64,000 nucleotides of DNA from Candidatus Micrarchaeia archaeon (GCA_049976845.1 JBMFHL010000001.1:3773-67772), one strand, 5' to 3'. Positions 4,224 through 54,270 are shown, counted from the stretch's first letter. Numbers and translations: made by a program. The notes: generated by a model from the sequence alone, not told the origin.

Positions 4224-4228
4224 TACCT

Positions 4229-5629
4229 TTGCTGATGTTACTTGTGCTGCTGCCTGTATTCGGGGCTCTTTTAGCTTTAGCGATTAGGAGAATGCCTGCA
4301 ATTATAAGTACTTCGACAGCCATTGTTGAACTAATCGTATTGTTGGCTGCCTTATATTACTTCGTTAGATATGGGTCGTTGCAGAATTCTTACAGTTATA
4401 TTTTGCCGCTAGGGATAAACTTTGGGTTTGCTCTTACTAATATAACGTTTGTATTTGCAATGCTTACAGCGATTGTTTTTTTGGCAGCCGCAATTGCAAA
4501 TATCGTTTTCATAAAGGAGGAGAAGCTTGGTTACAATTCTTTGTTTATGCTTGCTGAAAGCGCAGTTTTTGGAATCTTCCTTTCTGAAAATCTATTCTTA
4601 CTTTATCTATTCTGGGACACTGCAATTATAATATTCTTTTTCATGCTCTTCCATTTTGGAGGCTATGACAGGAGGTATGCTGCAGTGAAATTTGTATTGT
4701 ATTCCATATTCTCCAGCGCTATGCTGCTGATAGGTATAATGATGATCTACTTTTACATGCCTGTGCATACATTTAACATTTCGCAGGTAATCAGCTCAGC
4801 AGGATTGATTCCCCATACCGAGCAGCTTGAAGTACTTATAGTATTGATGCTTGCATTCATGGTGAAACTGCCAGTATTTCCATTTCATTCTTGGGCTCCC
4901 GATGCCTATTCAGAAGCGCCTGCTGGAAGTGCTATGTTATTGTCTGGAGTCCTGTCAAAATTTGGGGCATATGGAATGCTGCTTCTGTTTATTTCGTTGC
5001 CAATAGCAAAGACTTATTCAATTTATTTCGCAGAGCTTTTTGCTTTCTCTGCTATATACGCTGCCTTCGTTGCAATGAATCAAAAGGAATTAAGGAGGAT
5101 GCTTTCGTATTTGAGCATCAGCGAAATGGGAATTATTGCTTTTGGGATCTCCTCATTAAACTCTGTAGGAATCGCGGGAGCATTAGTGGGAATTTTTGGG
5201 CATGCTCTTATAATAGCGCTTCTGTTCCTGCTTGCTTTCTCTATAGAAAAGGCCTTTGGAACTTCGATATTGGCAAGGCTCAAGGGCTTGCTTAATGGTT
5301 CCAAGCTTATCGGTTATGTATTTATTTTTGGAGTGCTTGCCACACTGGGTCTTCCGCTTACAAGCGGATTCATATCAGACTTGCTGATACTGCTAGGTAG
5401 TGCAAAAAGCTTCGGACTGATTATACTGTTACCACTATTTGCCATACTAATAAATGGTGCGTACCTCTTCTGGGTCTATGAGAGGGTCTTCACAGCAAAA
5501 GAGGAACCACGTATATATGAAAAGCAGAATGGCTACATTTATGCGGCAATGGCATTATTGCTTGTATTTATTATAATTATAGGTATACTTCCTTCTATAA
5601 TCTTAAACAATCTTGGTGCTATAATATGA
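4229..5629 (+). CDS. nuoM: NADH-quinone oxidoreductase subunit M
   Basis: A 466-aa antiporter-like subunit (KLPVFPFHSWAPDAYSEAPAGSAMLLSGVLSKFG). The ORF opens at TTG 4229, and the first ATG is at 4235. Confidence 0.85.
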   Translation: MLMLLVLLPVFGALLALAIRRMPAIISTSTAIVELIVLLAALYYFVRYGSLQNSYSYILPLGINFGFALTNITFVFAMLTAIVFLAAAIANIVFIKEEKLGYNSLFMLAESAVFGIFLSENLFLLYLFWDTAIIIFFFMLFHFGGYDRRYAAVKFVLYSIFSSAMLLIGIMMIYFYMPVHTFNISQVISSAGLIPHTEQLEVLIVLMLAFMVKLPVFPFHSWAPDAYSEAPAGSAMLLSGVLSKFGAYGMLLLFISLPIAKTYSIYFAELFAFSAIYAAFVAMNQKELRRMLSYLSISEMGIIAFGISSLNSVGIAGALVGIFGHALIIALLFLLAFSIEKAFGTSILARLKGLLNGSKLIGYVFIFGVLATLGLPLTSGFISDLLILLGSAKSFGLIILLPLFAILINGAYLFWVYERVFTAKEEPRIYEKQNGYIYAAMALLLVFIIIIGILPSIILNNLGAII

Positions 5630-6993
5630 TAAGTTTAGTTTATATTTTCATCTTGCTCTTTGCCATTCTGGCACTAGGAAGCATGCTTGCTAGGATATTA
5701 AACAGAAAGGCACTGCTGTATGCTTTTTCTGTGCTTACTATTGCTGCAATTGCAGCCACTGCTGCAGATTTCATTTTTTCAGGCTCATTTGGAATTTATC
5801 TTGGTATTTTGTCGCTAAACCCATTTTCTTCTTTAATGATTATTCTTTTTGCTGCCGCAACAATACTTATTCTCTCTTACTCCCTAGAAGAAAGTACTTA
5901 CGAGGACTTTGCGCTTCTTCTTAGTTTTGACTTTATAGGAGCCAGTGTTGTGGCAATGGCAAATTCTTTAATTACTATCTTCCTTGGGCTGGAACTTGTG
6001 GCAATTCCAACTACAATAATGATTCTTCTTTCGAGAAAAAGCCTTGAGGCTGGAATAAAGTACTTTGTAATAACTGCAATTGCTTCATCCCTCTTGGCTT
6101 TTGGAATTGCGCTTGTTTACCTTTTTTCTGGAAATTTGCTTTTGTTATCGCAGCCTTATAGTGTGGGGCTTGCCTTTGCTTTGGTTATGTTCATAGCTGC
6201 AATTGGCATAGAAGCCTCTGTATTCCCTTTCAATCTTTGGGTCCCAGATGTATACCAAGGCTCCCCTTCTTTTGTAACATCGGTGCTTGGAGGAATAAAC
6301 AAAAAAGTAGGCCTTATAGCTTTGGTAGAAGTTGTGCTGATCATGTTTGGAACGTATACCATAGTAGCATACCTAGTTGCTGTACTTGCAATTCTTACGA
6401 TGTTTTATGGGAATCTTGGTGCATTAAGGCAACAGAACATTAAGAGGATGCTTGCGTATTCTTCAATATCACAAGCAGGCTATATTATGATTGGCTTAGC
6501 AACCTTAACTTCTTATGGAATCTCTGCGAGCATATTTCAAATATTTGCCCACATCTTTATGTTCGTTGGTGCATTCGCAATAGTCTCTTGGCTTGAGGGC
6601 AAAAACAGAGTAAATATCAATGAATATGTTGGCTTGAATAGTGAAAACAGGCTTGCTGCATTAGGTCTGAGCATTTTTCTTTTATCTATGGCAGGCATAC
6701 CGTTTACTGTGGGTTTCGTAGGGAAGTTTCTCCTCTTTTCAAGCGCGATATATGCAAACATGGCATGGCTTGCTATTCTAGGCATAATAAGCACTGTTAT
6801 TTCTATCTATTATTATTCGCGTGTGATAATTGCAATCTATACTAATAGAGCGGGCACAGTATATATTCACATGCATAGGAATGTGGCTGCTGTTGTTGCA
6901 GCATGTATAGTTATAGTGATTGCATTTGGCATATACCCGGGACCGGCAATCCATGCTGTTGAAAGCGCTGGCACTTATCTAATGCATGGCTAA
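5626..6993 (+). CDS. nuoN: NADH-quinone oxidoreductase subunit N
   Basis: A 455-aa antiporter-like subunit (FPFNLWVPDVYQGSPSFVTSVL, RMLAYSSISQAGYIM). It overlaps nuoM by 4 nt and is the last gene of the operon. Confidence 0.85.
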   Translation: MISLVYIFILLFAILALGSMLARILNRKALLYAFSVLTIAAIAATAADFIFSGSFGIYLGILSLNPFSSLMIILFAAATILILSYSLEESTYEDFALLLSFDFIGASVVAMANSLITIFLGLELVAIPTTIMILLSRKSLEAGIKYFVITAIASSLLAFGIALVYLFSGNLLLLSQPYSVGLAFALVMFIAAIGIEASVFPFNLWVPDVYQGSPSFVTSVLGGINKKVGLIALVEVVLIMFGTYTIVAYLVAVLAILTMFYGNLGALRQQNIKRMLAYSSISQAGYIMIGLATLTSYGISASIFQIFAHIFMFVGAFAIVSWLEGKNRVNINEYVGLNSENRLAALGLSIFLLSMAGIPFTVGFVGKFLLFSSAIYANMAWLAILGIISTVISIYYYSRVIIAIYTNRAGTVYIHMHRNVAAVVAACIVIVIAFGIYPGPAIHAVESAGTYLMHG

Positions 6994-7003
6994 ATCTAGA
7001 ACT

Positions 7004-9799
7004 TTATCTCTGACCATATGTTGACAAGAAGGAGAGGTACCTTCCTACCGCCATGCTTGGCGCAGAAGGTCTTGTCTTTTCTATCAGGTCTGTTAGATCC
7101 GACATTGTAATTTTAAGCTCTTTATTTGAATCCACACTTTTTTCCAATGCATTCATCTTAGCCTGTCTGCAGAGGTTCGCTATATCGGCACCTGTAAATC
7201 CTGGAGTCATTGAGGCAAGCACAGCAAAATTAATATTTGGTTCTAATGGTGCTTTCTTTAGGTACTGCTCGAATAAGCTTGCCCTGTCTTGTTCATTTGG
7301 AGGAGGAATAAATATGAGCTTGTCGAATCGGCCTGCCCTTAGTAGCGCAGAGTCTAGCGCATCTGGCCTGTTTGTCGCACCTACAAGCACTATATTATAC
7401 TTTGATTTCAGACCATCAAGTTCCTCGAGAAACTCACCTGTTAAGCTCACGCTAAGCTCACTTGCATTTTCTCTTGCAGGAACTACCGCATCTATCTCAT
7501 CGATAAATATTATAGACGGTGCATTCTCCTTTGCTCTATTGAATGCCTCTTTTATCTTTAATATTGACAAATTGGTGCCTGCTTTACTTATCTCTGAACC
7601 TGAAAGAAGTATCATATGCACATCCCCTATCTCTGAAGCAACTGCACGCATGAGCATGGTTTTGCCGGTGCCCGGAGGCCCAAAGAGCAGTATGCCCCTT
7701 ATGTTCTCTATGTCATATTTCTTGACAAGATCCGGATGCAGTATTGGTATCTCTACCGCTTCATATATTGCCTTCTTCGCTTCTTCAAGACCTACTACAT
7801 CATCGAGAGATACTGTACTGGTATCTTTATCTTCGCGCTCTGGATGCACCCTCCTTTCGTAATCAAGCTTGAATGTCGTATATTCTTCTATCTGACTCAG
7901 CGATGTTGAAGGTTTTGTAAGCTTTATTATCCTTACCATATCGCCCATTGTTATTTGCAGGATTTTGTTCATTGAGCTTGCTTCTTCTGCGGTCTCTCGT
8001 GCAGCCTCATCACATACATTTTTAATGTCAGCGCCAGAATATCTTTCGGATATTTCTGCAAGCTTGTGATAATCAATATCTTCCACTACAGGAAGCTTGG
8101 AGAGGTAGTATCTGAAGATCTTCTCTCTGCCGCTTGCGTCTGGAAGCGGCATGTATATTATCTTATCGAATCTGCCAGGCCTCATTATGCTTGGATCTAA
8201 TAGCTGTGGCGTGTTTGTTGCACCAACTATGACTACGCCTTCTATCTTCTGGAAGCCGTCCATTTCGCTTAGCAGTGTAGATAGGATCTGCTTACCAGAT
8301 TCTGACTCCTGTATCTCCCTGCTTCCTGCTATGCCATCAATCTCATCAAAGAACAACACGCATGGGGTATGCTTTTTGGCAGTGGCAAATATTCTTGAAA
8401 GAGTCTGAGCACTTTCCCCGGAGTATGGAGAGAGTATTGACGATGCTTTTACATAGAAGAATCCTGCCCTAATGTCATTGGCTAGAGCCCTCATTATCAG
8501 TGTTTTGCCAGTGCCTGGAGGCCCAAAGAGCAGTATACCTTTTGTTGGATTTATTCCGTATGCTCCGGACAGCTCACGGTGTTCTATTGGCGCAATTATT
8601 GCTTCCTTCAGCTCTGTTTTTGTTTCTTCGTAGTTTGCAACATCGTCAAGCGTTTCGTTCGTGCCACTTGTCAGATCCTCGAAGCCTTCACCAAAATGGG
8701 ACCTGAAATCGCGCTTCATCACTTCGAGAGCCTTGATTACTGGCACATCATTAAACTCCAAGAACAATATTATAAGAGGAGTAACTAGAAAGCCTAGCAA
8801 TGGGTAATAAACAAAGCTGTTTTTAGTTAGGTATGAAAGAATTATGTATGTGATAGGTATTATTATGCTAAAGAGGCTTGCTTCTGAGCCCTTGTATTTG
8901 GACCTGCTTTTTATTATATAATTGCTCATTACGAATACCACTATTATCCAAATAACGAGTTGCACTATCGCGATGTTACCTTCTATTGCAAGTGGCAGCA
9001 TTGCCAAATAGAAACTGGTAGGTATGCCCCCAGTTACCTTAAAACCAAAGAAATTATCTACTGAATTTGCCCATGCCGAACCTAAGGATGTTATGTTTGG
9101 CGCCGTCTTTGTTGGCATTAGGTATTGTGCATAGCTATTGGAGATTATAAACGAGTGGGCTAATGATGCGTTGAAGACTATACTGCCAGTATTTTGCATG
9201 TTCATTATGCCTGAGAGCATAATTACAATTAAAACTACTACAGCTACGCTTATAATGCCCCTCTTTGCCCCTACAAGCAGAACCATGAAGACAAGTGCAG
9301 GTATCTCAATAAAATAGCCCAAATAAGAGAATGGGAGGGCAATAAGCAGATAAGTCAATGTTATTATACGATAGTGCTTGAAGCCCAATAGGAGAGAGAC
9401 GCTTACGAAAATTGTGAAGAGCCATGCAAGCAGAGGAGCTTGATATATAAACATTGGTAATGTTTCAAAAAACAGAGTCATAAGCCCAAAGAGAGGATGT
9501 ATCATTGTTACAATAAAAGTAAGCACCAGCAATGGTATTATTATTATTGGAGGTAAAAACGGGAGGGCGATGGAGACGCTTGCTAATGTGAAAGTAGTTG
9601 CGATTGCATCAGGAAAATTTGGATGTGAAGTAAAATCTTTCAGTATGTCTTTGAGCCAGTAAGTCGAGAGAGGCAAGCTCCTTTTAATTGATACTTCGCT
9701 CTTTTGCTTTGGCCTTTTACCTAGTACTACACTTTTCTTTTTCTTTTTGTTCTGGGTACTGGGCGCCGCCTTAGTAACCGTGCTCTGACCATCGGGCAT
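7004..9799 (-). CDS. Double AAA+ ATPase (Cdc48/VAT-like D1-D2) fused to an N-terminal polytopic membrane domain
   Basis: Two complete AAA modules are present. Each has Walker A GPPGTGKT, a Walker B (FFDEIDGI / FIDEIDAV) and a second region of homology (ATNTPQLLDPSIMRPGRFD / ATNRPDALDSALLRAGRFD). They are preceded by about 350 aa containing a poly-Lys stretch and many hydrophobic helices. Confidence 0.85.
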   Translation of the reverse strand: MPDGQSTVTKAAPSTQNKKKKKSVVLGKRPKQKSEVSIKRSLPLSTYWLKDILKDFTSHPNFPDAIATTFTLASVSIALPFLPPIIIIPLLVLTFIVTMIHPLFGLMTLFFETLPMFIYQAPLLAWLFTIFVSVSLLLGFKHYRIITLTYLLIALPFSYLGYFIEIPALVFMVLLVGAKRGIISVAVVVLIVIMLSGIMNMQNTGSIVFNASLAHSFIISNSYAQYLMPTKTAPNITSLGSAWANSVDNFFGFKVTGGIPTSFYLAMLPLAIEGNIAIVQLVIWIIVVFVMSNYIIKSRSKYKGSEASLFSIIIPITYIILSYLTKNSFVYYPLLGFLVTPLIILFLEFNDVPVIKALEVMKRDFRSHFGEGFEDLTSGTNETLDDVANYEETKTELKEAIIAPIEHRELSGAYGINPTKGILLFGPPGTGKTLIMRALANDIRAGFFYVKASSILSPYSGESAQTLSRIFATAKKHTPCVLFFDEIDGIAGSREIQESESGKQILSTLLSEMDGFQKIEGVVIVGATNTPQLLDPSIMRPGRFDKIIYMPLPDASGREKIFRYYLSKLPVVEDIDYHKLAEISERYSGADIKNVCDEAARETAEEASSMNKILQITMGDMVRIIKLTKPSTSLSQIEEYTTFKLDYERRVHPEREDKDTSTVSLDDVVGLEEAKKAIYEAVEIPILHPDLVKKYDIENIRGILLFGPPGTGKTMLMRAVASEIGDVHMILLSGSEISKAGTNLSILKIKEAFNRAKENAPSIIFIDEIDAVVPARENASELSVSLTGEFLEELDGLKSKYNIVLVGATNRPDALDSALLRAGRFDKLIFIPPPNEQDRASLFEQYLKKAPLEPNINFAVLASMTPGFTGADIANLCRQAKMNALEKSVDSNKELKITMSDLTDLIEKTRPSAPSMAVGRYLSFLSTYGQR

Positions 9800-41093: not shown

Positions 41094-42239
41094 TTACAGA
41101 TCTAAAATCCTATTAACTGCATTTCTGACTTTTTTAATATTCCTTTTCTCACAAGCAATCAAAAGCTTTTTGTTCTGTGAATTTGCCTCTTCTAATCCTT
41201 TTATAATAAGCGAAGTATTCTCTAAAGTGCCTATCTTTTTACCAAATCTATTGAGTATTGGTGTGTTCTCTACTGTGTCTTTTGGGAAGATCTTAGTGAC
41301 AATTAGTTCTGTTTTATCCAAATCAACATACTTAAGTATTTCCTCCTCAATCTCCTTTTCGCTTAGGCTAAAATCTTTAGGCACTCTATCATAAAATACC
41401 CTCTTAAAAAGCTTCCTCTCAATTATTCTGTTTAAGAGAGGTGCAGATGGCTTATAAGACAACAATGTATTCATCATTTCAAAATCATTTAACGTTTTTA
41501 AAAGCGTCTTATCAAGATATCCATTATCTATTGCAGCTTCTACTGCACGCTCAAACATACCTTCTGCAATAAGTGTAGTATGGTGTAAATAAACAGATGT
41601 AAACATGAAATATCTTGCTAAAAGTATAGATTCAGCAGAAGGAATCCCCTGTGCATAAATAGACAGCTTGCCATTATACAGTGCAATCTTGCTTTTTAGC
41701 TGTTGATAGTCTATCACTCCATATGTGGCTCCTGTGTAATACGCATCCCGAAGCAGGTAATCTAATCTATCCGAGCCAAGCGAAGCGGTAATAACCTCTC
41801 CTCTCTCCTTGCCCTCTAGCATCTTCAATATTCTATTCAGCGAAAGTCCGCTATCGCTTATGACGTTTTTTATATCTGATTCTTTAATTATCTCCTTGCC
41901 TAGCTCTTCATGCGAAGTATGCAGATATCTTTTCAACAAGCGATCTAAACTATGCGAAAAGGACGCATGGCCAATATCATGCACAAGGCCCGCTACGCAA
42001 AGATCCTCCGCAGCATCTTCCTCTACCCCAATACTTTTCGTAAGCTCTTTGGTTATATAAAGTGTCCCAAGCGAGTGTTCAAAGCGCGAGTGGGTAGCCC
42101 CAGGGTATATAAGGTAAACAAATCCTGTCTGTCTTATATAGCGGAGTCGCTGCATGTGTTTGTCCTCTATAATCTTTTCCTCTGTTTCTGTCAAGTTTAT
42201 ATTTCCAAATATTGGGTCTTTTATGAACATGTTCACCAT
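41094..42239 (-). CDS. HD-domain metal-dependent phosphohydrolase (dNTP triphosphohydrolase-like)
   Basis: The sequence is HSRFEHSLGTLYI...AGLVHDIGHASFSH...DRLDYLLRDAYYTG. Confidence 0.8.
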   Translation of the reverse strand: MVNMFIKDPIFGNINLTETEEKIIEDKHMQRLRYIRQTGFVYLIYPGATHSRFEHSLGTLYITKELTKSIGVEEDAAEDLCVAGLVHDIGHASFSHSLDRLLKRYLHTSHEELGKEIIKESDIKNVISDSGLSLNRILKMLEGKERGEVITASLGSDRLDYLLRDAYYTGATYGVIDYQQLKSKIALYNGKLSIYAQGIPSAESILLARYFMFTSVYLHHTTLIAEGMFERAVEAAIDNGYLDKTLLKTLNDFEMMNTLLSYKPSAPLLNRIIERKLFKRVFYDRVPKDFSLSEKEIEEEILKYVDLDKTELIVTKIFPKDTVENTPILNRFGKKIGTLENTSLIIKGLEEANSQNKKLLIACEKRNIKKVRNAVNRILDL

Positions 42240-43546
42240 TTTTTAACAAAGTCCCTTATTATACCATCAAATTCCTTCCCAATAGGGGCAAGTTCATATG
42301 TTACCTGCACTATTGGCTTGTTTACTTTTACTATCTTCCTTAGGTCTGTAGGGGTTCCAGAAATAACAATGTCGCATTTCGCATTATTTATTACTTCGGT
42401 GAGCTCCTTTACCTGCATTTTGCTGTAACCTATCGCAGGAAGTATCCTCTCTATATTATACTTCTCATAGGTTTTCTTTATTGTTCCAATCGCATACCTT
42501 CTTGCATCAATTATCTCCCTGGCTCCATAATTCTTGGCTGCGACTACTGCCGCTCCAAACTTCATATTTCCATGGGTGACTGTGGGCCCATCTTCTATAA
42601 CAAGTGCCGTTTTCCCTTTTATCAATTCTTCAGGATCTGCATTTATCTTAGATTCTGCATATACTATTTTGGCTTTTGCATTTATACTTTTTAGGTTGCG
42701 TTTAATCTCGCTTAACTCCATCTTACTTGCAGAATTTACTTTATTCACAACGAGTACATCTGCCATTCTTGCGACCGTCTCTCCAGGATAATACCCAAGC
42801 TCATTTCCTACTCTGAGTGGATCTGCTACAGTTATCATAAGATCCGGTTTTATGAAAGGTGCGTCGTTGTTGCCACCATCCCATATAATAACATCTGCCT
42901 CTTTTTCAGCAGCTTTTAGTATTTTTCCATAGTCCACTCCAGAATAAACAACAGTGCCTTCCCTAATGTGCGGTTCATAATCTTCCCTCTCTTCGATGGT
43001 GCATTTCTGTTTGTCCAAATCTTCAAGCGCACCAAAACGCTGTACCTCCTGCTCTTTAAGATCTCCATATGGCATTGGATGCCTAATAACTACAGGCGTT
43101 TTTCCTAGTTTTTTTATTAACCTGGATATGTATCTGGATGTTGGGCTTTTTCCGCTTCCGGTCCTTACAGCGCATACTGCTATTACGGGTTTTACCGATT
43201 TTAGCATCGTGTGCTCTGGAGAAATAAGCCAGAAATCTGCTCCGTGTGAATTTGCAATGCTTGCTTTGTGCATTACCTCCGCATAAGGCAAGTCGCTGTA
43301 TGCTAGCAAGCAAGCGTCAATTTTATATCTGTCTATCAAGTCTCCAAGTTTAGACTCATCAAAAATTTTTATACCATTTGGGTAAAGTTTGCCTGCAAGT
43401 TCTTTGGGATATCTTCTGTCTACTATAAAAGGAATCTGGTTTGCAGTAAATGCAATAATTTCATAATCTGCATTGTCGCGGAAAAGCATATTGAAATCAT
43501 GAAAATCCCTTCCTGCAGCGCCAAGAATCAAGATTCTCTTCCTCAT
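42233..43546 (-). CDS. P-loop NTPase, COG2403-like predicted GTPase / cyclic 2,3-diphosphoglycerate-synthetase-like
   Basis: The N-terminal ILILGAAGRDFHDFN and the P-loop VRTGSGKS are present. It overlaps the downstream HD gene by 7 nt. The family call is from memory and is tentative. Confidence 0.5.
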   Translation of the reverse strand: MRKRILILGAAGRDFHDFNMLFRDNADYEIIAFTANQIPFIVDRRYPKELAGKLYPNGIKIFDESKLGDLIDRYKIDACLLAYSDLPYAEVMHKASIANSHGADFWLISPEHTMLKSVKPVIAVCAVRTGSGKSPTSRYISRLIKKLGKTPVVIRHPMPYGDLKEQEVQRFGALEDLDKQKCTIEEREDYEPHIREGTVVYSGVDYGKILKAAEKEADVIIWDGGNNDAPFIKPDLMITVADPLRVGNELGYYPGETVARMADVLVVNKVNSASKMELSEIKRNLKSINAKAKIVYAESKINADPEELIKGKTALVIEDGPTVTHGNMKFGAAVVAAKNYGAREIIDARRYAIGTIKKTYEKYNIERILPAIGYSKMQVKELTEVINNAKCDIVISGTPTDLRKIVKVNKPIVQVTYELAPIGKEFDGIIRDFVKKW

Positions 43547-45622: not shown

Positions 45623-48016
45623 ATGGAAAAAACAGAGCCAGTCCAATTGGATGAAGAATTGCAATCAAGCTATATTGACTATGCCATGAGTGTTATAATA
45701 GGCAGAGCCATACCTGATGCCCGAGACGGTCTCAAGCCTGCGCAAAGAAGAATACTTTATGCAATGTATAGCATAAACAATTTGCATGACCAGCCTACTA
45801 AAAAGAGTGCAAGAATAGTTGGAGAAGTAATAGGTAAATATCATCCACATGGGGACGTCGCAGTTTATGATACTTTAGTAAGGATGGCTCAAGACTTTTC
45901 AATGAACCACGTGATGGTTGAAGGGCAGGGAAATTTTGGTTCAATAGACGGAGATCCACCTGCAGCAATGAGATATACCGAGGTGCGTCTCACTAGCATT
46001 GCAGAAGAATCATTAAACGATTTGGATAAGAACACTGTGGAATTTGTATCAAACTTCGACAACACCGAAAAAGAGCCCATAGTATTGCCATCAAAAATAC
46101 CAAATCTTTTGATAAATGGTGCATCCGGGATTGCCGTGGGTGTAGCAACAAGCATACCCCCGCATAACCTGAGCGAAGTATGTGATGCAATAATACAGGT
46201 ATTAGATAAGGATACAACAATAGAAGATATACTAGAAATAATAAAAGGCCCTGATTTTCCTACAGGCGGCATAGCAATAATGTCTGGAAATGCCTATAAT
46301 GGGTATAAGTACGGCAAAGGGCAGATTACTGTAAAAGCAAAGGCAGAGATAAAAGAAAAAGAGAGAAAAATAATAGTAACAGAAATACCTTATAATGTCA
46401 ACAAAGCCATGCTCATACAAAATATAGCAGAGCTCGTAAGAGACAAAAAAATAAATGGCATAACTGACATAAAAGATGAGAGTGACAAAGAAGGAATAAG
46501 GATAGTAATAGAGTTTAGAAACGGAGAAAACGGCGAGAGTCTTTTGAACTCGTTATATAAGCACACGCAACTTGAAATAACATTCCCTATAATAAATCTC
46601 GCAATAGTTGGAAAGGAATTAAAGAATTTTAACATATTGCAGTTGATAAATACTTTCATCGAGCACAGAAGGGAAATAATAAAGAAAAGAAGCGAGTTTG
46701 AACTTAATAAGTCAAAAGACCGTGTTCACATATTAGAAGGCCTTCTAACAGCAATCAATAGCATAAATGAAATAGTAAAGCTAATAAAGGAAAGCGCTTC
46801 AGTAAGCGATGCAAAAGAGAGGTTGGTGAAAGCATACAATTTAAGTGAAAAGCAGGCATCTGCCATTTTAGAGATGAAGCTTAGCAGATTAACCCATCTT
46901 GAGTCAGACTCTATAAACAAGGAGAGAGCAGAGCTTGCAGGCAAAATAGATTATTACAATTCACTATTGTCAGATCCAAAGAAAATAGATTCAGTAATTA
47001 AGAACGAAATCAAAGAAATAAAAGAAAAATATGGCAGGAAGAGAAGAACGGAAATAATTAAAATGGAAGAGGAAATAACGCTGAAGGAAGAAGATCTAAT
47101 AAGCAATGAAAAAGTGACGGTCATATACACAAATTCCGGATATATAAAAAGACTTGGCATAGAAAGCTACAAAGAACAAGCAAGAGGGGGCAAGGGAGTA
47201 ATAGCAATAAACCTTAAGGAGGGAGACTATGCAAAGCAAATAATCACCTGCTACACTAAAGATTACCTGCTATGTATATCAGATAAGGGAAGAGCGTACT
47301 GGCTTAAGGTATACAGAATACCAGAAGGGAAGCGGTATTCAGAAGGCAAGAGTATAGTAAATTTGCTTAACTTAAAAGACGAGAAAATAGTTATAATAAT
47401 GGTACTGAATGACATAGAACGATCAAGCATATCTTTGCTAACAAAAAGCGGATTAGTAAAGAAAATGAATGCACGTCTATTCTCCAAGCCTAGGTCAAGC
47501 GGCGTTACCGCAATCGCCTTAAGGGAAGGCGACGCAATAATCGATGCAATAACTTATACAAATGAAAAGTATATCTTCATAACAACAAAGAAAGGCAAAG
47601 CAATCAAATTCGAAGATTCGAAAATAAGGTTTACTGGAAGATCTTCAATGGGTGTGCGTGGCATAAGGCTATCAAACAATGACGAAGCAAAAAACATAAT
47701 AGCAGCAGGAGATGTTGGCTATATACTTACTGTTACTGAAAATGGCTATGGCAAATTGACAGAAGTGCTTAATTACAGGCTGCAAAATAGGGGCGGCGGC
47801 GGCGTCCTAAATATCAGAATATCGGAAAAAACAGGTTATGTAGCAAAATCCTTATTCTTGAGTGGCGAAGCAAATATAATATTAATAAATTCCTCTGGCA
47901 TAACGATTTCATTCAATGCAAGTAGTATAAGGATTACAGGGAGAAATGCAAGTGGGGTAAGATTAATGAGAGTCGAAGAAGGGATGAAAGTAGTAGATGC
48001 AAAGATAATGCAATAA
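45623..48016 (+). CDS. gyrA: DNA gyrase subunit A
   Basis: The sequences YAMSVIIGRAIPDARDGLKPAQRRILY and GKYHPHGD, the catalytic region AAMRYTE, and the GyrA-box QARGGKGV in the beta-pinwheel C-terminal domain are present. Confidence 0.95.
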   Translation: MEKTEPVQLDEELQSSYIDYAMSVIIGRAIPDARDGLKPAQRRILYAMYSINNLHDQPTKKSARIVGEVIGKYHPHGDVAVYDTLVRMAQDFSMNHVMVEGQGNFGSIDGDPPAAMRYTEVRLTSIAEESLNDLDKNTVEFVSNFDNTEKEPIVLPSKIPNLLINGASGIAVGVATSIPPHNLSEVCDAIIQVLDKDTTIEDILEIIKGPDFPTGGIAIMSGNAYNGYKYGKGQITVKAKAEIKEKERKIIVTEIPYNVNKAMLIQNIAELVRDKKINGITDIKDESDKEGIRIVIEFRNGENGESLLNSLYKHTQLEITFPIINLAIVGKELKNFNILQLINTFIEHRREIIKKRSEFELNKSKDRVHILEGLLTAINSINEIVKLIKESASVSDAKERLVKAYNLSEKQASAILEMKLSRLTHLESDSINKERAELAGKIDYYNSLLSDPKKIDSVIKNEIKEIKEKYGRKRRTEIIKMEEEITLKEEDLISNEKVTVIYTNSGYIKRLGIESYKEQARGGKGVIAINLKEGDYAKQIITCYTKDYLLCISDKGRAYWLKVYRIPEGKRYSEGKSIVNLLNLKDEKIVIIMVLNDIERSSISLLTKSGLVKKMNARLFSKPRSSGVTAIALREGDAIIDAITYTNEKYIFITTKKGKAIKFEDSKIRFTGRSSMGVRGIRLSNNDEAKNIIAAGDVGYILTVTENGYGKLTEVLNYRLQNRGGGGVLNIRISEKTGYVAKSLFLSGEANIILINSSGITISFNASSIRITGRNASGVRLMRVEEGMKVVDAKIMQ

Positions 48017-48017
48017 A

Positions 48018-50807
48018 CTATGTTTCCTTCCAAAACCTGCGATTTTTTATATAATTTTTTTGAGCCTCTATTAGATCTATGACAAAAAAATTATACTCTG
48101 TTCTGAGCATTTTCAGAACCCTTGCAGCAGTCCTGACCCCTATCCCATAGGTTGAAAGCGCAACCAGGGCTTTATCACCATACTCCTGTATAAGACCCGC
48201 AGAGCTTAATGCTTCAGAGTAAATCTCCTTCTCGTGCTTTTTCAGTTTTACACCTTTAGTAACTTTATCTATGACTTCCCTGTACTCTGGTTTGAATATA
48301 GAAATCATTGTACTCCTACAATTTGGGCATGTGATGCCAGAACCCTCATTTAGTCCAGAAATCTTTCTTGAAAAGTTGAAACCACAAAACGTGCAGAGTA
48401 GATCAACACTCTTACTCTTCATTCCTTCAACAAACTGTCTTACTTCCTCGCTTCCAGGCAATAAAGGAAGCATCAGCTCTCTGTAATGGTATGATGATTT
48501 CAAGACCTCATTAGACATTGGGCTTAATTCTGGGAAAGAAAATAGCGCAAAATCTATAGTGCCCTCTTTTAGCCGTTTTGAAAAATCAAGGACATGTTCA
48601 AGATCATAATAATTTTTATATAGGTCTCTCAAAGTCTCATCGAAAACAGGCGTGCCTTTATAGAAGTCGATTAACCTATTTGCAATATTCTTAGTAACAG
48701 TTGCTTTCTTTTCAATAATCCCGAAAAGTTTTGCTATTTGTATGAATTTGTACCTGAATAACTCGGAAGAGTATATAAGTGAATTACTCTTCAAAATCCC
48801 TTCAAAATTCTGTTCCTTAAGTAAGGATAGGATCCTCTTTGTATTGGGCTTATGCCGTGCAGCACTCACATCAACAACAACAGCATATGCCATTGCCCGT
48901 GTGCTTACTCCAAAGCCTACTTCTGAAGTAAATATGGCTCCGATGATCCTAGAAAGCAGTTCATTCGCCAACTTTCCTAAAGGAAGATAAATTATAACAT
49001 AATCTCCAAATTCTTCAACAGCAATTTCGTTTTCCTTAGGAATAAAGTACTTCTTTTGTTCAGCCATAAAATTATTTATCTTGTTTAAAGTTGCAGAATC
49101 TACAAAACTTTCTATTTCACTAACATCATGTCCTGAAAGTAGTTTATATGTTGAATTAGCAACCTCATAAGAAACAGGGATGTCCTCCCCTTCCCAATCA
49201 GGTATTGCAGCTTCCAGATTGGTCGAAGGCTCTACAAATATTGTATCTTTTTCTATGCTAATTACATGCCATGGTAAACCTTTAGTTATAAAAATGGAGC
49301 CATCATCAATATAATTAGCGACAAAGTTTTCGTTTAATGAGGATATGATATTATTTCCTGTAGCGCTTCTTACAATGAATCTTGCAACATCAGGTATTAC
49401 ACTTATATTTTCTATAAAATATGAAATGCTCCTTCCACTTCTAAAAACAACTCCTTTATAAAATTTTATTAGGTGCAATTGATTTAGGAGATTAATTACC
49501 GATTTTAGAGTCTCTATTTTTAAATTTGCAAAAGGCTGAGACCGACTTATAATTTCAAATAGCTTCTCTTCTCTTATAGATTTGTACTCTAGTGCTATTG
49601 CAACGATCTGGTTTGCAAGCACGTCTAGCGGATTTTTTTCTATTCTCCTTTTTTCAAGCACCTTTTCGTAAGCAAGCTTAATTATTGCTGCAGATTCAAT
49701 CGATTCGATGACGCTAGCCACAACAATATCCCCAGAAGCCTTTCCATGTACGGCATGACCACTTCTGCCTACCCTCTGCAGCAATCTTGTAACTTGTTTT
49801 GGTGATCCATACTGTATAACTAAATCGATTCCCCCTATGTCTATCCCCAGCTCAAGGGAGCTCGTTGCGATTATGCTCCTTACCCTTCCGTTTTTAAAAT
49901 CCTCTTCAACTCTTATCCTCTCCATTTTGTCTAGAGAACTGTGATGCACTGCAATTGGTCCAAAATGTTCAGTTTTGTCCAAATACAAAAGTTTACTTCC
50001 TAAACTTTCAGCAACCTGCCTGGTATTTACAAATACAATGCTCTCGTTTGCACCCTCTATTAATTCTTTTAACCTTTCCACCCTAGCCGCAGTCTCAACA
50101 TCCAGTGCAAATACCTCCCTAAATTTTGCATAATCCTTTTTCATCACACTGGGCATCTCTAACCTCAGCTCAACTTTCTTCTCATTCTCATCAGAAATAA
50201 TTTTACACAGCCTGTTCCCACATAAAAAAAGCGCAGCAGTGTTCATATCACCTATTGTAGCACTTATCCCTACTCTTTGGAAGTTGCCTGCAAGCTCTGC
50301 GATCCTCTCTAAAGCAACAGCAAGTTGGGCTCCACGCTTGTTATAATATAATTCATGCAATTCATCAACTATTACCACCTCCAAGTTTTTCAAAGAGTCC
50401 CTTAAATTTTTGGTGAATAACAAATTTTGAATGCTTTCAGGAGTGGTTATAAGCAGTTGTGGTGGCTTCTTAGATTGGTTAACCCTGTCTTTTTTTGGGG
50501 TATCTCCATGCCTCACTCCTATGCTAATACCAAGCGTTTTGCAAAACAATTCCAACCTTTTCAGCAAATCCCTGTTTAGCGCTCTAAGTGGCGTAACATA
50601 AATAGCATTTATGCCTTTTTTATTTTCAACACTTATCCTCTTAAGTATGGGTAATATTGCAGCCTCTGTTTTTCCTGTTCCTGTAGACGCAGTTATTATG
50701 CAGTTCTCTCCCTTCTCCACTACTGGTATTGCTTTCTTTTGTATGCTTGTAAACTCTCCGAATCTATCTAGAAAAATCCTATAAATATCTTCCGGCAAAG
50801 ATACCAC
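48018..50807 (-). CDS. lhr: Lhr-family ATP-dependent DEAH-box helicase
   Basis: Walker A (ASTGTGKTEAA), DEAH-type motif II (VIVDELHE), SAT (ISATIG), motif VI (QRVGRSGH), a long Lhr-like C-terminal region and a zinc ribbon (CTFCG...CPNC) are present. The GTG start directly abuts the upstream stop. Confidence 0.8.
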   Translation of the reverse strand: MVSLPEDIYRIFLDRFGEFTSIQKKAIPVVEKGENCIITASTGTGKTEAAILPILKRISVENKKGINAIYVTPLRALNRDLLKRLELFCKTLGISIGVRHGDTPKKDRVNQSKKPPQLLITTPESIQNLLFTKNLRDSLKNLEVVIVDELHELYYNKRGAQLAVALERIAELAGNFQRVGISATIGDMNTAALFLCGNRLCKIISDENEKKVELRLEMPSVMKKDYAKFREVFALDVETAARVERLKELIEGANESIVFVNTRQVAESLGSKLLYLDKTEHFGPIAVHHSSLDKMERIRVEEDFKNGRVRSIIATSSLELGIDIGGIDLVIQYGSPKQVTRLLQRVGRSGHAVHGKASGDIVVASVIESIESAAIIKLAYEKVLEKRRIEKNPLDVLANQIVAIALEYKSIREEKLFEIISRSQPFANLKIETLKSVINLLNQLHLIKFYKGVVFRSGRSISYFIENISVIPDVARFIVRSATGNNIISSLNENFVANYIDDGSIFITKGLPWHVISIEKDTIFVEPSTNLEAAIPDWEGEDIPVSYEVANSTYKLLSGHDVSEIESFVDSATLNKINNFMAEQKKYFIPKENEIAVEEFGDYVIIYLPLGKLANELLSRIIGAIFTSEVGFGVSTRAMAYAVVVDVSAARHKPNTKRILSLLKEQNFEGILKSNSLIYSSELFRYKFIQIAKLFGIIEKKATVTKNIANRLIDFYKGTPVFDETLRDLYKNYYDLEHVLDFSKRLKEGTIDFALFSFPELSPMSNEVLKSSYHYRELMLPLLPGSEEVRQFVEGMKSKSVDLLCTFCGFNFSRKISGLNEGSGITCPNCRSTMISIFKPEYREVIDKVTKGVKLKKHEKEIYSEALSSAGLIQEYGDKALVALSTYGIGVRTAARVLKMLRTEYNFFVIDLIEAQKNYIKNRRFWKET

Positions 50808-52454
50808 TCAGCTAAAGAAATTAACAGTAGCATTGCCTTTCGACAATGCCGTAACATTATTTGAGGTATAGTTTAGGATGATCTTCAAATTCAAATTGAA
50901 TGGTAAACCAGAAATTATCTGGTTCATGCTGTAGCATTTGGCAGTAAGCAATGTATTGCTGCCCAAATTTACAAGGCTATCAATTTTTGTTGGCATGCCC
51001 GTACCATCTTCAGAGCACAAAACATTGTTTATTTTTACTGGGTAAAGTTTCTCATTCCCTAATCGGAATGTGATACTTCCACTAGCAAATGTTACGTTTG
51101 CGCATCCAAATCCTGCTATACTGCATTTGCTTGCAAATCCAGATTCAAAAGCAACAGACTTTCCAGAGAAATTGAGGAGCTTCAGCAGGTTTACATTTAA
51201 TGGAACAGCTTCCAATACTAGCGATTCATTGGTAAGGGCAAAGACGCTTAAATTATAAGGTGGTAAATACTCACTTGTCCTAACAAGGCCTACTGGCATA
51301 ATCTTTCCATAGGTCTGGAACAGGTATGTGCTGCAATAGCTCTGGTTGTTTACACTGCTTATTATGCCATAGCACTTATTATCTCCAATATTCTCATTTA
51401 TGCTTGGTGCAACAAATTCATTCCCATATTCAAATATCTTTTCTGCCGAAAAACTTGCCGTTGGGAAGTAGTACGAGTCATAGCTCGCAAGAAGAGTAGA
51501 ATTAGCCAAATCAAAATCTTCGAATTTAGAGGATTCTGTTGTAATTGGCATATAATTGCTGTTATTTGCTCCAATTAAGCCAATGCAGGAAGAAGGGCCC
51601 TTGTAGGCAACGCTCTTTATCCATCCATCTGAGTACCAGCTGCAAAGGCTCACATTTTTTGCCAATTCTGCTACAGTCACATTAGTACCATTTGCTTCAT
51701 ATGTGCTAATGCTTGCATTTGTGCCGTTCAGTGCTATCTTTACAAGGTCTGGATTTAGGTACCCTCTTATCCACACTGAATATATCGAGCTGCCATTAGT
51801 ATAATTAGCATAAGCAACATTAATTTGCCTTATGTATGGGCTTATCATTGTTATAAGCGAAGAGAAGAAAGTATATGGCAAGTTAATGTCTGTATAATCG
51901 AAAATCGGCAAAGAGTAATTCATGTTCAGGTAAAGCGCAACCAAACTTCCTTGCTGGCTCATGTTAATCTCAGTGAGGTATGTCAAGTTTCTTCCAGTTA
52001 TTGGAGAATATGCCTCAGCAGGCTGCGGCGCATTCACATAAACATATTTGGTTGCCTGTGCATTGCTTCTATCTACAATGTTGTAGAATTTTGCTGGGTC
52101 TGCTATTGCCATAACAGAATAGTTTCCAGGCTCAGTAGGGGTGAAATTAAAATATATAATTGCTTCTTTGCCTGCAGGCACAGTAATCCGGTAGTTTGTA
52201 CTTGAATTGTAAGTTAAATTTTCGCTGTTCTTTACCAAAACTTCAAATCCTATTTCATCTACATTGCTGCTGCCAGTATTGTTTATTATTATCGGCAAAT
52301 CTACCTGCCTTAGCGGGAAGAGGTTCTGCAGATTCGAAGTGCCAAAGCTAACATGCAAGTCTATGCCTGGCTGGTAATAATACCTAAAATAAAGTGCTAT
52401 TAAAACAATGAAAATGAAAAATACTACCAAAGCATAATCTATCTTTTCCATCAA
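50808..52454 (-). CDS. Membrane-anchored extracellular protein, CARDB-like beta-sandwich at the N-terminus, very rich in N-glycosylation sequons
   Basis: An N-terminal hydrophobic anchor (YALVVFFIFIVLIALYF) is followed by a CARDB-like block (LPIIINNTGSSNVDEIGFEVLV...VPAGKEAIIYFNFTPTEPGNYSVMAIAD). I hand-counted about 25 N-x-S/T sequons and saw several Cys pairs. Confidence 0.6.
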   Translation of the reverse strand: MMEKIDYALVVFFIFIVLIALYFRYYYQPGIDLHVSFGTSNLQNLFPLRQVDLPIIINNTGSSNVDEIGFEVLVKNSENLTYNSSTNYRITVPAGKEAIIYFNFTPTEPGNYSVMAIADPAKFYNIVDRSNAQATKYVYVNAPQPAEAYSPITGRNLTYLTEINMSQQGSLVALYLNMNYSLPIFDYTDINLPYTFFSSLITMISPYIRQINVAYANYTNGSSIYSVWIRGYLNPDLVKIALNGTNASISTYEANGTNVTVAELAKNVSLCSWYSDGWIKSVAYKGPSSCIGLIGANNSNYMPITTESSKFEDFDLANSTLLASYDSYYFPTASFSAEKIFEYGNEFVAPSINENIGDNKCYGIISSVNNQSYCSTYLFQTYGKIMPVGLVRTSEYLPPYNLSVFALTNESLVLEAVPLNVNLLKLLNFSGKSVAFESGFASKCSIAGFGCANVTFASGSITFRLGNEKLYPVKINNVLCSEDGTGMPTKIDSLVNLGSNTLLTAKCYSMNQIISGLPFNLNLKIILNYTSNNVTALSKGNATVNFFS

Positions 52455-52455
52455 A

Positions 52456-52917
52456 TCACGCAGACCTATTCTTTAATTCGTTTATGATCTCCTTTATTTT
52501 ATTTCTTACCTCTTTATATTCATCTTCGAATAAATTGTCAGCCCAAGAGGCTATGTCATATTTATCTCCTATGCTTGGTGCCTTGAAATAAAATTTCCCC
52601 TGGCTATTATCCAAAAAGCCCATGTTCTTCATCCTTAACAAATGGTACCTTAAGGTTTTTTCATTCATCTGCTGCCAGTTTGAATTTATATACGAAATAA
52701 TTTCACCCACATTCGGATCTGTTTTTTTTACGAATTGATAGTAAACCAATGCATCTAACACTGCCACAGCACTCAATCTGGATTCCCCAGGGTTTATTAT
52801 TCCAAGCGACAGCGCAAGCCACCTTACCATAGAGCGTCTTGTTTCAACTACCTCTTTAGTGAGCCTAAGATTTCGTATAGTTATCTCCCGTTCTATTAGC
52901 TCCGCTTCGTTCAGCAT
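52456..52917 (-). CDS. Hypothetical protein with winged-helix-like C-terminal half
   Basis: A 153-aa ORF. The sequence TLRYHLLRMKNMGFLDNSQGKFYF resembles a recognition helix plus wing. There is a 1-nt gap to the downstream gene. Confidence 0.35.
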   Translation of the reverse strand: MLNEAELIEREITIRNLRLTKEVVETRRSMVRWLALSLGIINPGESRLSAVAVLDALVYYQFVKKTDPNVGEIISYINSNWQQMNEKTLRYHLLRMKNMGFLDNSQGKFYFKAPSIGDKYDIASWADNLFEDEYKEVRNKIKEIINELKNRSA

Positions 52918-53273
52918 TAAAAACCCTCATTATAAATTAGAGTGTAATTATTAATATATATGTAAAGCAAGCAAACAAATAATAATCTATCAAAAATGCC
53001 CTTAGTAATGCATGCATATATAGGCATTCCTGGGCACGTACTTTGAAAAACCTTCAAGTAGCATATATCATAGAGCGCAGGGCAGATTAAATTGGAACGA
53101 CTATAAATACTCCAGCAGCGAACTCAAAGATGTGCTGCTTAATATATAGCAGAAAAAACCCAAAGAATTCCACGTTTCCTTTAATAATAATTACAATACG
53201 CTCGAAAATGATCGCAGTATGCTTAAGTATGCAAAGAATAAAGATTATTAAAGTATAGTTCAAAAGTAATTTT

Positions 53274-53642
53274 ATGCCAGATTTTAAAGTATCAATAACC
53301 AGCACACCAGAAACTATGAAATCTTTTAGAAGAAATGAGTTAGAGCTAATGCTTTCAGTGACTTCAGAAGAAAACCAGCCCCCTTTTAATTATTGGGTCG
53401 AAGCAATAGTGACAGTTCCCCATCTTACTTCGTTAGCTCCAGATAGACCACTGGAGAACGGCAAGCTCCTGTTGGGAATAATATCAAACGGATCTGCAAA
53501 AGAGAAAAGATTCAAGCTATTTGCAAACAACAACATATATCCAGATACCTATAAGATTATGCTTACAATTTTATTCTACGACTCAGAAGGTGCAGTAGCA
53601 GAAAGGCAGGATGTAACAAAAGAGATAGTGTGCAGTGACTAA
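53274..53642 (+). CDS. Hypothetical protein (122 aa)
   Basis: A clean ORF whose stop is immediately followed by the next ATG. I recognise no family. The alternation pattern suggests it is beta-rich. Confidence 0.4.
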   Translation: MPDFKVSITSTPETMKSFRRNELELMLSVTSEENQPPFNYWVEAIVTVPHLTSLAPDRPLENGKLLLGIISNGSAKEKRFKLFANNNIYPDTYKIMLTILFYDSEGAVAERQDVTKEIVCSD

Positions 53643-53876
53643 ATGCCCAAATACTTCAAAGTCTACGATTCAAATGAAGTCCTCTTCATAACTATAGATG
53701 ACAGTGGTGCAGTAATAATAAAAGACAAGGCTGGAAAGAAAATATTCCTCTCTAGATACCAGGCAAAACTAATGAGATTTAGCATAGATAACCTCTTCGG
53801 AGACAAATTCAAGAAATCTTCAGATTCTAACATACACATTGAGGAAATAAGCGAAGAAGATAGCAATAAAAAGTGA
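53643..53876 (+). CDS. Hypothetical protein (77 aa)
   Basis: The ATG directly abuts the upstream stop (TAAATG). I recognise no family. Confidence 0.35.
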   Translation: MPKYFKVYDSNEVLFITIDDSGAVIIKDKAGKKIFLSRYQAKLMRFSIDNLFGDKFKKSSDSNIHIEEISEEDSNKK

Positions 53877-53901
53877 AATTGCTATATTAATACTGATTTA
53901 T

Positions 53902-54270
53902 ATGGAAAATACTCCAAATCAACAGCAAAATGGTGAAATGCAAGGGCAAGAAATAGAGAAGATCATCAAAGAATATCAGCTCCTCCAAGAACAGCTGAGG
54001 GCATTCTCCCTGCAACTAGAGCAGCTGCAGCTACAAAAGAGCGAGTCTACAACAGCCCAAGCAGAGATAGAGAAAGCAACAGGCAAAATATACATAACAA
54101 TTGGCGGAGTCATAGTAGAAACAGACAAATCAACAGCATTGAAGAATCTAAAAGAGAAAATGGAAACTACAGACCTAAGGTTGCAGACTACAAGCAAACA
54201 GTTTAATGAGCTCAAAGCAAGGGAAAAATCACTAAGAGAAAAGCTGTCAAAAATGCAGCTACAGCAATGA
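53902..54270 (+). CDS. pfdB: Prefoldin beta subunit
   Basis: A coiled coil, beta hairpins and a second coiled coil are present: QLLQEQLRAFSLQLEQLQLQ...IYITIGGVIVETDK...LRLQTTSKQFNELKAREKSLREKL. Confidence 0.75.
   Translation: MENTPNQQQNGEMQGQEIEKIIKEYQLLQEQLRAFSLQLEQLQLQKSESTTAQAEIEKATGKIYITIGGVIVETDKSTALKNLKEKMETTDLRLQTTSKQFNELKAREKSLREKLSKMQLQQ

Follow-up and report, generated by a model that had tools for sequence, protein, structure and literature searches.

Gene string and its conservation among relatives

Within a 64,000-nucleotide (nt) stretch from a Candidatus Micrarchaeia archaeon (GCA_049976845.1 JBMFHL010000001.1:3773-67772; hereafter the window), three minus-strand genes for a small winged helix-turn-helix (wHTH) protein, a CARDB-like surface protein and an Lhr helicase follow one another almost without spacing. 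The parts are of known kinds, and two of them come from families not yet described.

52456-52917, minus strand: small wHTH gene, open reading frame (ORF) of 153 amino acids (aa)
50808-52454, minus strand: CARDB-like surface-protein gene, ORF of 548 aa (547 aa from ATG)
48018-50807, minus strand: Lhr helicase gene, ORF of 929 aa

The ORF coordinates and junction codons agreed with the original prediction, a model's reading of the same DNA, which had described three minus-strand genes with 1-nt and 0-nt spacers. At the first junction, the TGA of the small gene (52458-52456) is followed after one base by a TTG at 52454, with an ATG one codon further on at 52451; since the NCBI model P0001 is 547 aa long and fits the ATG at 52451, the spacer in the window is probably 4 nt. 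At the second junction, the TGA at 50810-50808 abuts a GTG at 50807, and an in-frame TTG lies at 50798. The packing had also been taken to imply one transcript, but close packing is normal for this genome. The 48 same-strand neighbour pairs in the window are separated by a median of 6 nt (at most 5 nt in 23 and at most 1 nt in 15), and 93% of the window is coding. Tight packing is thus attributable to genome-wide compaction and stop-to-start spacing alone gives no evidence of a special link, which has to come from conservation of gene order.

To this end, loci were taken from a scan with the small-protein profile of one genome per GTDB species (the best 80 of 222 matches, each from a different Micrarchaeota species), further loci were added from contig look-ups, and adjacency was counted over loci with enough flanking sequence. 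The small gene was directly followed by the CARDB-like gene in 78/78 loci, and the CARDB-like gene by Lhr in 68/74 (92%). The latter linkage is on par with that of the control pair gyrB and gyrA, which are obligate partners (44/46), and lies above those of prefoldin beta (pfdB) with DHH (35/51) and DHH with Mre11 (21/34); p77 and prefoldin beta were adjacent in 24/25. With refined starts, the first gap had a median of 3.5 nt and was at most 10 nt in 67/78 loci, with overlaps (n=29) that were mostly ATGA, and the second had a median of 5 nt and was at most 10 nt in 43/61. The flanks were less stable: gyrAB was moved or flipped in loci L012, L056, L074 and L084, and the upstream neighbour of the small gene was prefoldin in 35/78 loci, p77 in 13 and p122 in 6. 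Median identity was 70% for GyrB, 64% for the small protein (81 loci), 63% for GyrA, 51% for prefoldin, 49% for Lhr and 32% for the CARDB-like protein, the product of the fastest-evolving gene of the neighbourhood. These data indicate that the three-gene order is kept among relatives, that the gene pair occurs in every one of the ~80 species examined, and that the locus is a case of core-genome synteny beside gyrase.

The pair also occurred without Lhr, namely in 6/74 loci (L024, L037, L041, L084, L085 and L004/L005). Directly behind it stood gyrA in L024, L037 and L041, and in L004/L005 and in Microcaldus variisymbioticus ARM-1 it lay next to nuoH. In ARM-1, the small protein ARM1_0198 is 41% identical to the window protein, and 27 nt after its gene begins that of a 539-aa protein with a full-length family-profile match (E 4e-62), 8 Cys and 30 N-x-S/T sequons; this pair is beside nuoH, with no Lhr there. 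L004 matches the gene table of Ca. Micrarchaeum harzensis A_DKE in layout and protein lengths. In that table, Micr_00158, Micr_00159, Micr_00160 (CARDB) and Micr_00161 encode 138, 156, 572 and 87 aa and are followed by NuoH, with normalised transcripts per million (TPM) of 3.46, 3.61, 1.94 and 2.92, respectively (PMC8975820 Supplementary Data S5). By layout, Micr_00158 corresponds to the L004 homolog of p122, Micr_00159 to the small protein and Micr_00160 to the surface protein. The Lhr of Ca. M. harzensis is Micr_00044 (arCOG00557), at an unlinked locus and with a TPM of 0.14 (PMC8975820). Of the grouping originally proposed, then, the wHTH/surface pairing proved universal (78/78) and the helicase a non-obligatory member, missing behind the pair in the six loci and in ARM-1. 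As a side observation, in ARM-1 (region L092 7001-10446) and L004 (region 5502-9620, matching Micr_00158-00162) the remainder of the nuo operon, beginning with nuoH-nuoI, directly follows the pair in place of Lhr; the nuoL/M/N-like genes of the window (2484-6993) are ~45 kb from the pair.

Expression signals and the upstream space

Ahead of the small gene lies a 356-nt gap (52918-53273), the largest intergenic space of the window, and the features in and beyond it are as follows.

52918-52970, minus strand: probable promoter and 5' leader of the operon, a sequence reading with a putative function
53012-53233, plus strand: DUF72 pseudogene relic, from tblastn and an in-frame stop
53274-53642, plus strand: p122, divergent neighbour, 122 aa, of no known family

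In the window, the small gene's ATG is preceded by an A/T-rich TATA-like stretch, TTTACATATATATTAATAA, at about -48 to -30, and by GAGGG ~7-11 nt upstream. When TATA-like hexamers were scored at -55 to -20, they were found upstream of the small gene in 67% of 81 orthologous regions, upstream of the CARDB-like gene in 9% and upstream of Lhr in 10%, with 0% in the coding control, and all k-mers enriched upstream of the small gene were TATA-type. Shine-Dalgarno-like motifs were present in 28%, 42% and 10%, respectively (coding control 3%), and runs of five or more T upstream of the CARDB-like gene and Lhr in 3% and 5% (coding control 0%). The kept order, the concentration of TATA-like signals upstream of the first gene and the lack of oligo-T terminators at the junctions support the single transcript that had been proposed, and the rarity of TATA-like hexamers at both junctions speaks against the internal promoters that would have undermined it. 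The three genes are thus likely to form one transcription unit, and the signals fit a single promoter ahead of the small gene and translation of Lhr by termination-reinitiation. A sigma-70 promoter scan, which is not applicable to archaea, gave background level only, and an Rfam scan of 47500-54000 returned nothing credible. A hairpin with a 9-bp stem and a T-rich tract was observed at 50829-50850 on the minus strand, in the 3' end of the surface-protein gene, 20-40 nt ahead of where Lhr starts; the region has 4 terminator-like sites, compared with 3.6 in shuffles, and so no excess of them.

The same observations bear on whether the genes are merely adjacent, each being driven by an independent promoter inside the upstream coding sequence and the order being kept by slow rearrangement. 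Unrelated pairs such as pfdB with DHH and DHH with Mre11 do still adjoin in 62-69% of loci, but the triad is kept while its flanks rearrange, with gyrAB relocated and the upstream neighbours varying as described above. The TATA-like hexamers before internal genes, at ~10% of loci against none in the coding control, could be read as promoters of this kind, but ahead of the first gene such hexamers are about seven-fold more frequent. Likewise, the hairpin and T-rich tract at 50850-50829, just before the Lhr start, might separate Lhr from its neighbours, but terminator-like sites are no commoner here than in shuffles, and at both junctions stop and start codons generally overlap or abut in the species compared. 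We therefore consider mere adjacency improbable.

The gap itself had been described as the largest non-coding region in the window. The size was right, but the label was not, since a decayed DUF72 gene lies inside. A tblastn search of the whole window with the intact DUF72 protein of L001 (232 aa) matched residues 153-226 with 39% identity (E 1e-10); the C-terminal ~75 codons are kept, with an in-frame stop in the translation, and ~150 N-terminal codons have been deleted. The intact gene occupies the same position in L001, a close relative, and a DUF72 gene would fit into the equivalent space in L007-L009, L013, L023 and L048. The gap is therefore accounted for by a pseudogene relic and a divergent promoter region, which leaves no unusual regulatory element, and a regulatory RNA locus was rejected because of the relic. 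Beyond it, p122 matched by BLASTP a 136-aa protein of the Micrarchaeum-like contig L004 (E 5e-21) and a 119-aa protein of L089, from a lineage further removed (E 9e-18), whose genes (4988-5398 and 5607-5966) are immediately upstream of the wHTH gene and divergent from it. Weaker relatives were seen at the same position in the Diapherotrites-like contigs L087 (5460-5819) and L090 (5264-5608). The association between p122 and the wHTH gene is only partial, as p122 was found by tblastn within less than 400 nt in only 6/78 loci; p122 may share a regulatory region with the operon.

At the other end, the convergent gyrA (end 48016) and Lhr (end 48018) have a single base between their stops, too little for terminators; the window has several further convergent pairs that overlap or are spaced by 0-10 nt. 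The window is core chromosome, with gyrB/gyrA, nuoL/M/N-like genes, primase, tRNA-intron endonuclease, a Cdc48-like AAA ATPase, prefoldin beta, a DHH/DHHA1 phosphoesterase and an Mre11-like phosphoesterase as housekeeping neighbours. A 437-aa ORF beside an HD-domain gene (42233-43546, minus strand) had no Pfam match at E <= 1e-5.

Features of the three proteins

The surface protein, numbered from the ATG, consists of a transmembrane (TM) segment (residues 3-25), a CARDB domain (32-139), a mixed alpha/beta region (156-430) and a C-terminal beta-sandwich (440-543), as modelled by AlphaFold2 with a mean predicted local distance difference test score (pLDDT) of 85 and a predicted TM-score of 0.66. 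The N-terminal segment is its only hydrophobic one, and K/R in the short N-tail of homologs suggest an N-in, C-out (type II) topology. Foldseek matched the CARDB domain to the solved PF1109 domain, 3idu and 2kl6 (E 2e-6 to 4e-6, target TM-score 0.75-0.87, root-mean-square deviation (rmsd) 2.3-2.8 A), and the family profile matched 3idu with E 4.8e-10. Pfam CARDB (PF07705) scored 17.0 bits against the window protein (E 0.0068, residues 32-121), below the cut-off of 22.7; most homologs carry a precomputed PF07705 match. For the remaining ~400 residues, neither Pfam nor NCBIfam gave a family, and no chain in the PDB matched them along their length. Full-length Foldseek matches to RseB, complement C3/C4 and transglutaminase had an rmsd above 20 A and were set aside as generic beta-sandwich noise.

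The protein contains exactly 25 N-x-S/T sequons, the number that had been estimated by hand, that is 4.6 per 100 aa compared with 0-1.1 in 20 other window proteins. Shuffles of its sequence gave totals of 9.3 +/- 2.6 (maximum 19 in 5000). The N-tail and TM helix are free of sequons. At 16 positions a sequon is present in at least 50% of 64 homologs, with N400, N408 and N527 occupied in ~90%. Sequon density in homologs is 3.5-6.2 per 100 aa, and their median Cys count is 8. All 8 Cys of the window protein are invariant in a 16-sequence alignment; in one of 65 sequences, invariance holds for 3 of them, and the remaining 5 are kept in at least 90%. The description of the middle protein as membrane-anchored, CARDB-like and Cys-containing was thus borne out. 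Micrarchaeota are reported to N-glycosylate their S-layer protein (bioRxiv 10.1101/2021.04.28.441871), and these sequence hallmarks are those of an extracellular, N-glycosylated, disulfide-bonded and membrane-anchored protein. A 65-sequence profile search returned, among the matches listed, 11 Micrarchaeota proteins; a single-sequence scan of genome contigs with the 548-aa protein gave no match.

The S-layer protein of Ca. M. harzensis, SLP_Mh (Micr_00292), is among its highest-expressed genes (TPM 124.8), and the surface-protein ortholog has an ordinary transcript level in co-culture (normalised TPM 1.94). A role of the surface protein as S-layer protein or as its stoichiometric anchor was rejected on account of the wrong size and domain and the ~60-fold lower ortholog transcript. 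The genome is a metagenome-assembled genome (MAG) of the Micrarchaeia (DPANN), a symbiont lineage, as had been considered; the 548-aa protein shows 100% identity to an NCBI protein from a 'Candidatus Micrarchaeia archaeon' MAG. A fast-evolving putative surface glycoprotein of an episymbiont is a reasonable candidate for a host-contact factor.

For the 153-aa protein, no Pfam or NCBIfam match was obtained above cut-off. Its AlphaFold2 model (pLDDT 86) has helices at 48-63, 70-80, 86-98 and 131-150 and a beta-wing at 102-111, so that a conserved ~45-residue N-terminal extension, a wHTH and a long C-terminal helix can be distinguished. Across an alignment of 35 sequences, the putative recognition helix NEKTLRYHLL does not vary. 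A Foldseek search of the model against the PDB gave only generic winged-helix proteins, all with E >= 0.02, and the family profile searched against PDB sequences had its best match in MecI (E 4e-4), followed by BlaI (0.03), over the winged-helix region. A word-indexed search gave 401 homologs, with 62-90% identity among the 120 listed, and 107 clusters at 50% identity were found among 1.8 billion representatives. The small protein therefore represents a winged-helix family not yet described, limited to Micrarchaeota and DPANN relatives. More distant homologs, such as those in 'Ca. Diapherotrites' MAGs, are encoded either in isolation or beside unrelated genes. In one such MAG, L087, a gene convergent with the wHTH homolog (6594-7568, minus strand) specifies a Cys-rich protein of 324 aa with a TM helix at its N-terminus; this protein did not match the profile of the 548-aa family. 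The simplest reading of the small protein, going by its predicted fold and position, is a DNA-binding regulator heading its own operon.

This raises the question of whether the two proteins work as a sensor-regulator pair, in which the ectodomain would sense host contact, envelope state or a ligand and control the wHTH protein, as in BlaR1-BlaI and MecR1-MecI, so that the output of the operon including Lhr would follow the surface state. PadR-type regulators encoded beside a membrane protein are another analogue. The universal and tightly coupled pairing (78/78) would suit such a system, as would the profile's best PDB matches, weak though they are, being MecI and BlaI, and the presence of MecI/BlaI, PadR and Fur-type winged-helix proteins among the Foldseek matches; however, the small protein had no Pfam Penicillinase_R or PadR match and contains no membrane segment. 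Similarly, a conserved regulator together with a fast ectodomain (64% compared with 32%) would suit a receptor whose partner varies, but the surface protein has only ~3-6 cytoplasmic residues and no protease or other cytoplasmic domain, and therefore no evident route for a signal to a soluble protein. Taken together, a sensor-regulator pair appears unlikely.

The helicase has the full Lhr core, with Pfam matches to DEAD (7e-38), Helicase_C (3e-23), WH_Lhr (2e-15) and DEAD_assoc (6e-25), and the motifs GTGKT at 43, DELH at 148, SAT at 182 and QRVGR at 344 are intact. At its C-terminus is a Cys4 zinc-ribbon-like motif, C805-TF-C808 ... C827-PN-C830. An extra C-terminal Cys-rich, zinc-finger-like motif distinguishes aLhr1 from aLhr2 (PMC8301817), and the 929-aa protein is accordingly assigned, from its core, motifs and CxxC...CxxC, to the predicted aLhr1 type. 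Against the NCBIfam equivalog PRK13767 it scored 434 bits, below the 849 cut-off. No aLhr1 is reported to have been biochemically characterised, and a survey found no conserved neighbourhood of Lhr/aLhr1 genes across archaea (PMC8301817). PADLOC matched the helicase to BrxHI (4e-98), SngC (2e-88) and DpdJ (2e-70), with no match for the two upstream proteins or the divergent neighbours. A BREX, Shango or Dpd defence system was rejected, because PADLOC gave no partner components beside the helicase and the matches reflect Lhr homology only.

These features also bear on a possible three-component machine, in which the surface protein, the DNA-binding protein and Lhr would jointly handle nucleic acid at the envelope, for example in capture or processing of host DNA or RNA by a nucleotide-scavenging symbiont. 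The CARDB-like/Lhr linkage, at the level of gyrB/gyrA and above other neighbouring pairs, would be expected of such a machine, but the pair dispenses with Lhr in the six loci, in ARM-1 and in the Ca. M. harzensis-like lineage, and it is the last two cases that disfavour a three-way machine. Lhr lacks expression signals of its own and so must be co-expressed with the pair; in Ca. M. harzensis, however, where the loci are unlinked, its transcript is ~14-fold below that of Micr_00160, the layout-matched surface ortholog. The neighbourhood is rich in DNA metabolism (gyrase, DHH/DHHA1 phosphoesterase, Mre11-like), but no nucleic-acid-binding domain was detected in the surface protein by Pfam, NCBIfam, Foldseek or profile, Lhr has no membrane or secretion feature, and PADLOC gave only generic Lhr-like helicase matches and none for the partners. 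Such a machine is consequently very improbable. A more specific version, that the three proteins couple a glycosylated surface receptor or adhesin to cytoplasmic nucleic-acid handling, the surface protein engaging the host, the wHTH protein binding incoming or damaged nucleic acid and aLhr1 processing it, is an extremely doubtful proposition; if true, it would be a dedicated Micrarchaeota route for DNA/RNA acquisition or repair during host contact.

Proposed two-gene module and comparison with known systems

The explanation we favour, with modest confidence, is a two-gene regulator and surface-glycoprotein module with aLhr1 locked into its transcription unit. The functional unit would be two genes, a small winged-helix regulator at its own promoter and then the gene of a membrane-anchored, N-glycosylated and disulfide-stabilised surface protein with its CARDB domain next to the membrane. 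A single promoter ahead of the small gene would drive both genes, and the surface protein would be translated from a start abutting or overlapping the small-gene stop. The small protein would bind DNA and probably regulate its own operon, and the surface protein would be exposed and glycosylated at the cell surface. In one large Micrarchaeota subclade that includes this genome, the housekeeping aLhr1 gene would have come to lie directly behind the pair, co-transcribed with it; having neither a promoter nor a ribosome-binding signal of its own, Lhr would be expressed by read-through and termination-reinitiation. This dependence on the operon would lock the gene order without the helicase working with the surface protein, so that Lhr would be a passenger rather than a partner, and its linkage more likely stems from the operon packing of a compact genome than from shared biochemistry.

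Several points weigh against the two-gene module. The CARDB-like/Lhr adjacency of 92% resembles that of the obligate partners gyrB and gyrA, which keeps a functional tie of Lhr conceivable, and the locus sample is biased to closer relatives, being drawn from the best profile matches. In Ca. M. harzensis, another predicted surface protein, Micr_00045 (662 aa, arCOG05471), adjoins Lhr. The small protein is conserved like gyrase (64%), more than is usual for a regulator of local scope and perhaps a sign of a broader role, and a k-mer search for an operator upstream of its gene gave no conserved motif beyond the TATA-type ones.

Micrarchaeota and other DPANN depend on hosts, and the surface proteins that mediate contact, together with their regulation, are almost uncharted. 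The main value of the locus is therefore a well-defined candidate pair for DPANN surface biology that can be tested in culture, and directly so, because cultured ARM-1 carries the pair (ARM1_0198 and the gene after it), and Ca. M. harzensis, also in culture, has genes that match it by layout (Micr_00159/00160). Moreover, the locus would be an example of a housekeeping gene, aLhr1, becoming locked through genome compaction into an operon to which it is unrelated, a caution that adjacency is a poor guide to function in reduced genomes.

One parallel in arrangement is with BlaI/MecI and BlaR1/MecR1, where a small wHTH protein with a C-terminal helix is likewise encoded in an operon with a membrane protein bearing a large extracellular part. 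Compared with BlaI, MecI and CopY, however, the 153-aa protein has no Pfam Penicillinase_R match at E <= 0.1, and to BlaI and MecI it shows only marginal profile matches and Foldseek E-values of at least 0.1; these two are not known to carry an N-terminal extension like its ~45-residue one. The surface protein differs from BlaR1 and MecR1 in having no cytoplasmic zinc-protease domain, essentially no cytoplasmic part and no detected protease family.

With archaeal CARDB surface proteins (PF07705; Pyrococcus furiosus PF1109) it shares the ~100-residue N-terminal beta-sandwich by a membrane anchor, but it carries ~400 further residues and 8 conserved Cys that match no known family. SLP_Mh is, like the surface protein, a predicted N-glycosylated Micrarchaeota envelope protein with an N-terminal hydrophobic segment; it is 979 aa long (~101 kDa) and belongs to PF05123, whereas members of the surface-protein family are ~540 aa long and have no PF05123 match. 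Finally, the window Lhr has the same domain set and C-terminal CxxC...CxxC as aLhr1 helicases (arCOG00557), but unlike aLhr1 in general it sits in a putative lineage-specific wHTH/surface/Lhr operon, an arrangement not previously reported, behind two genes unrelated to it.

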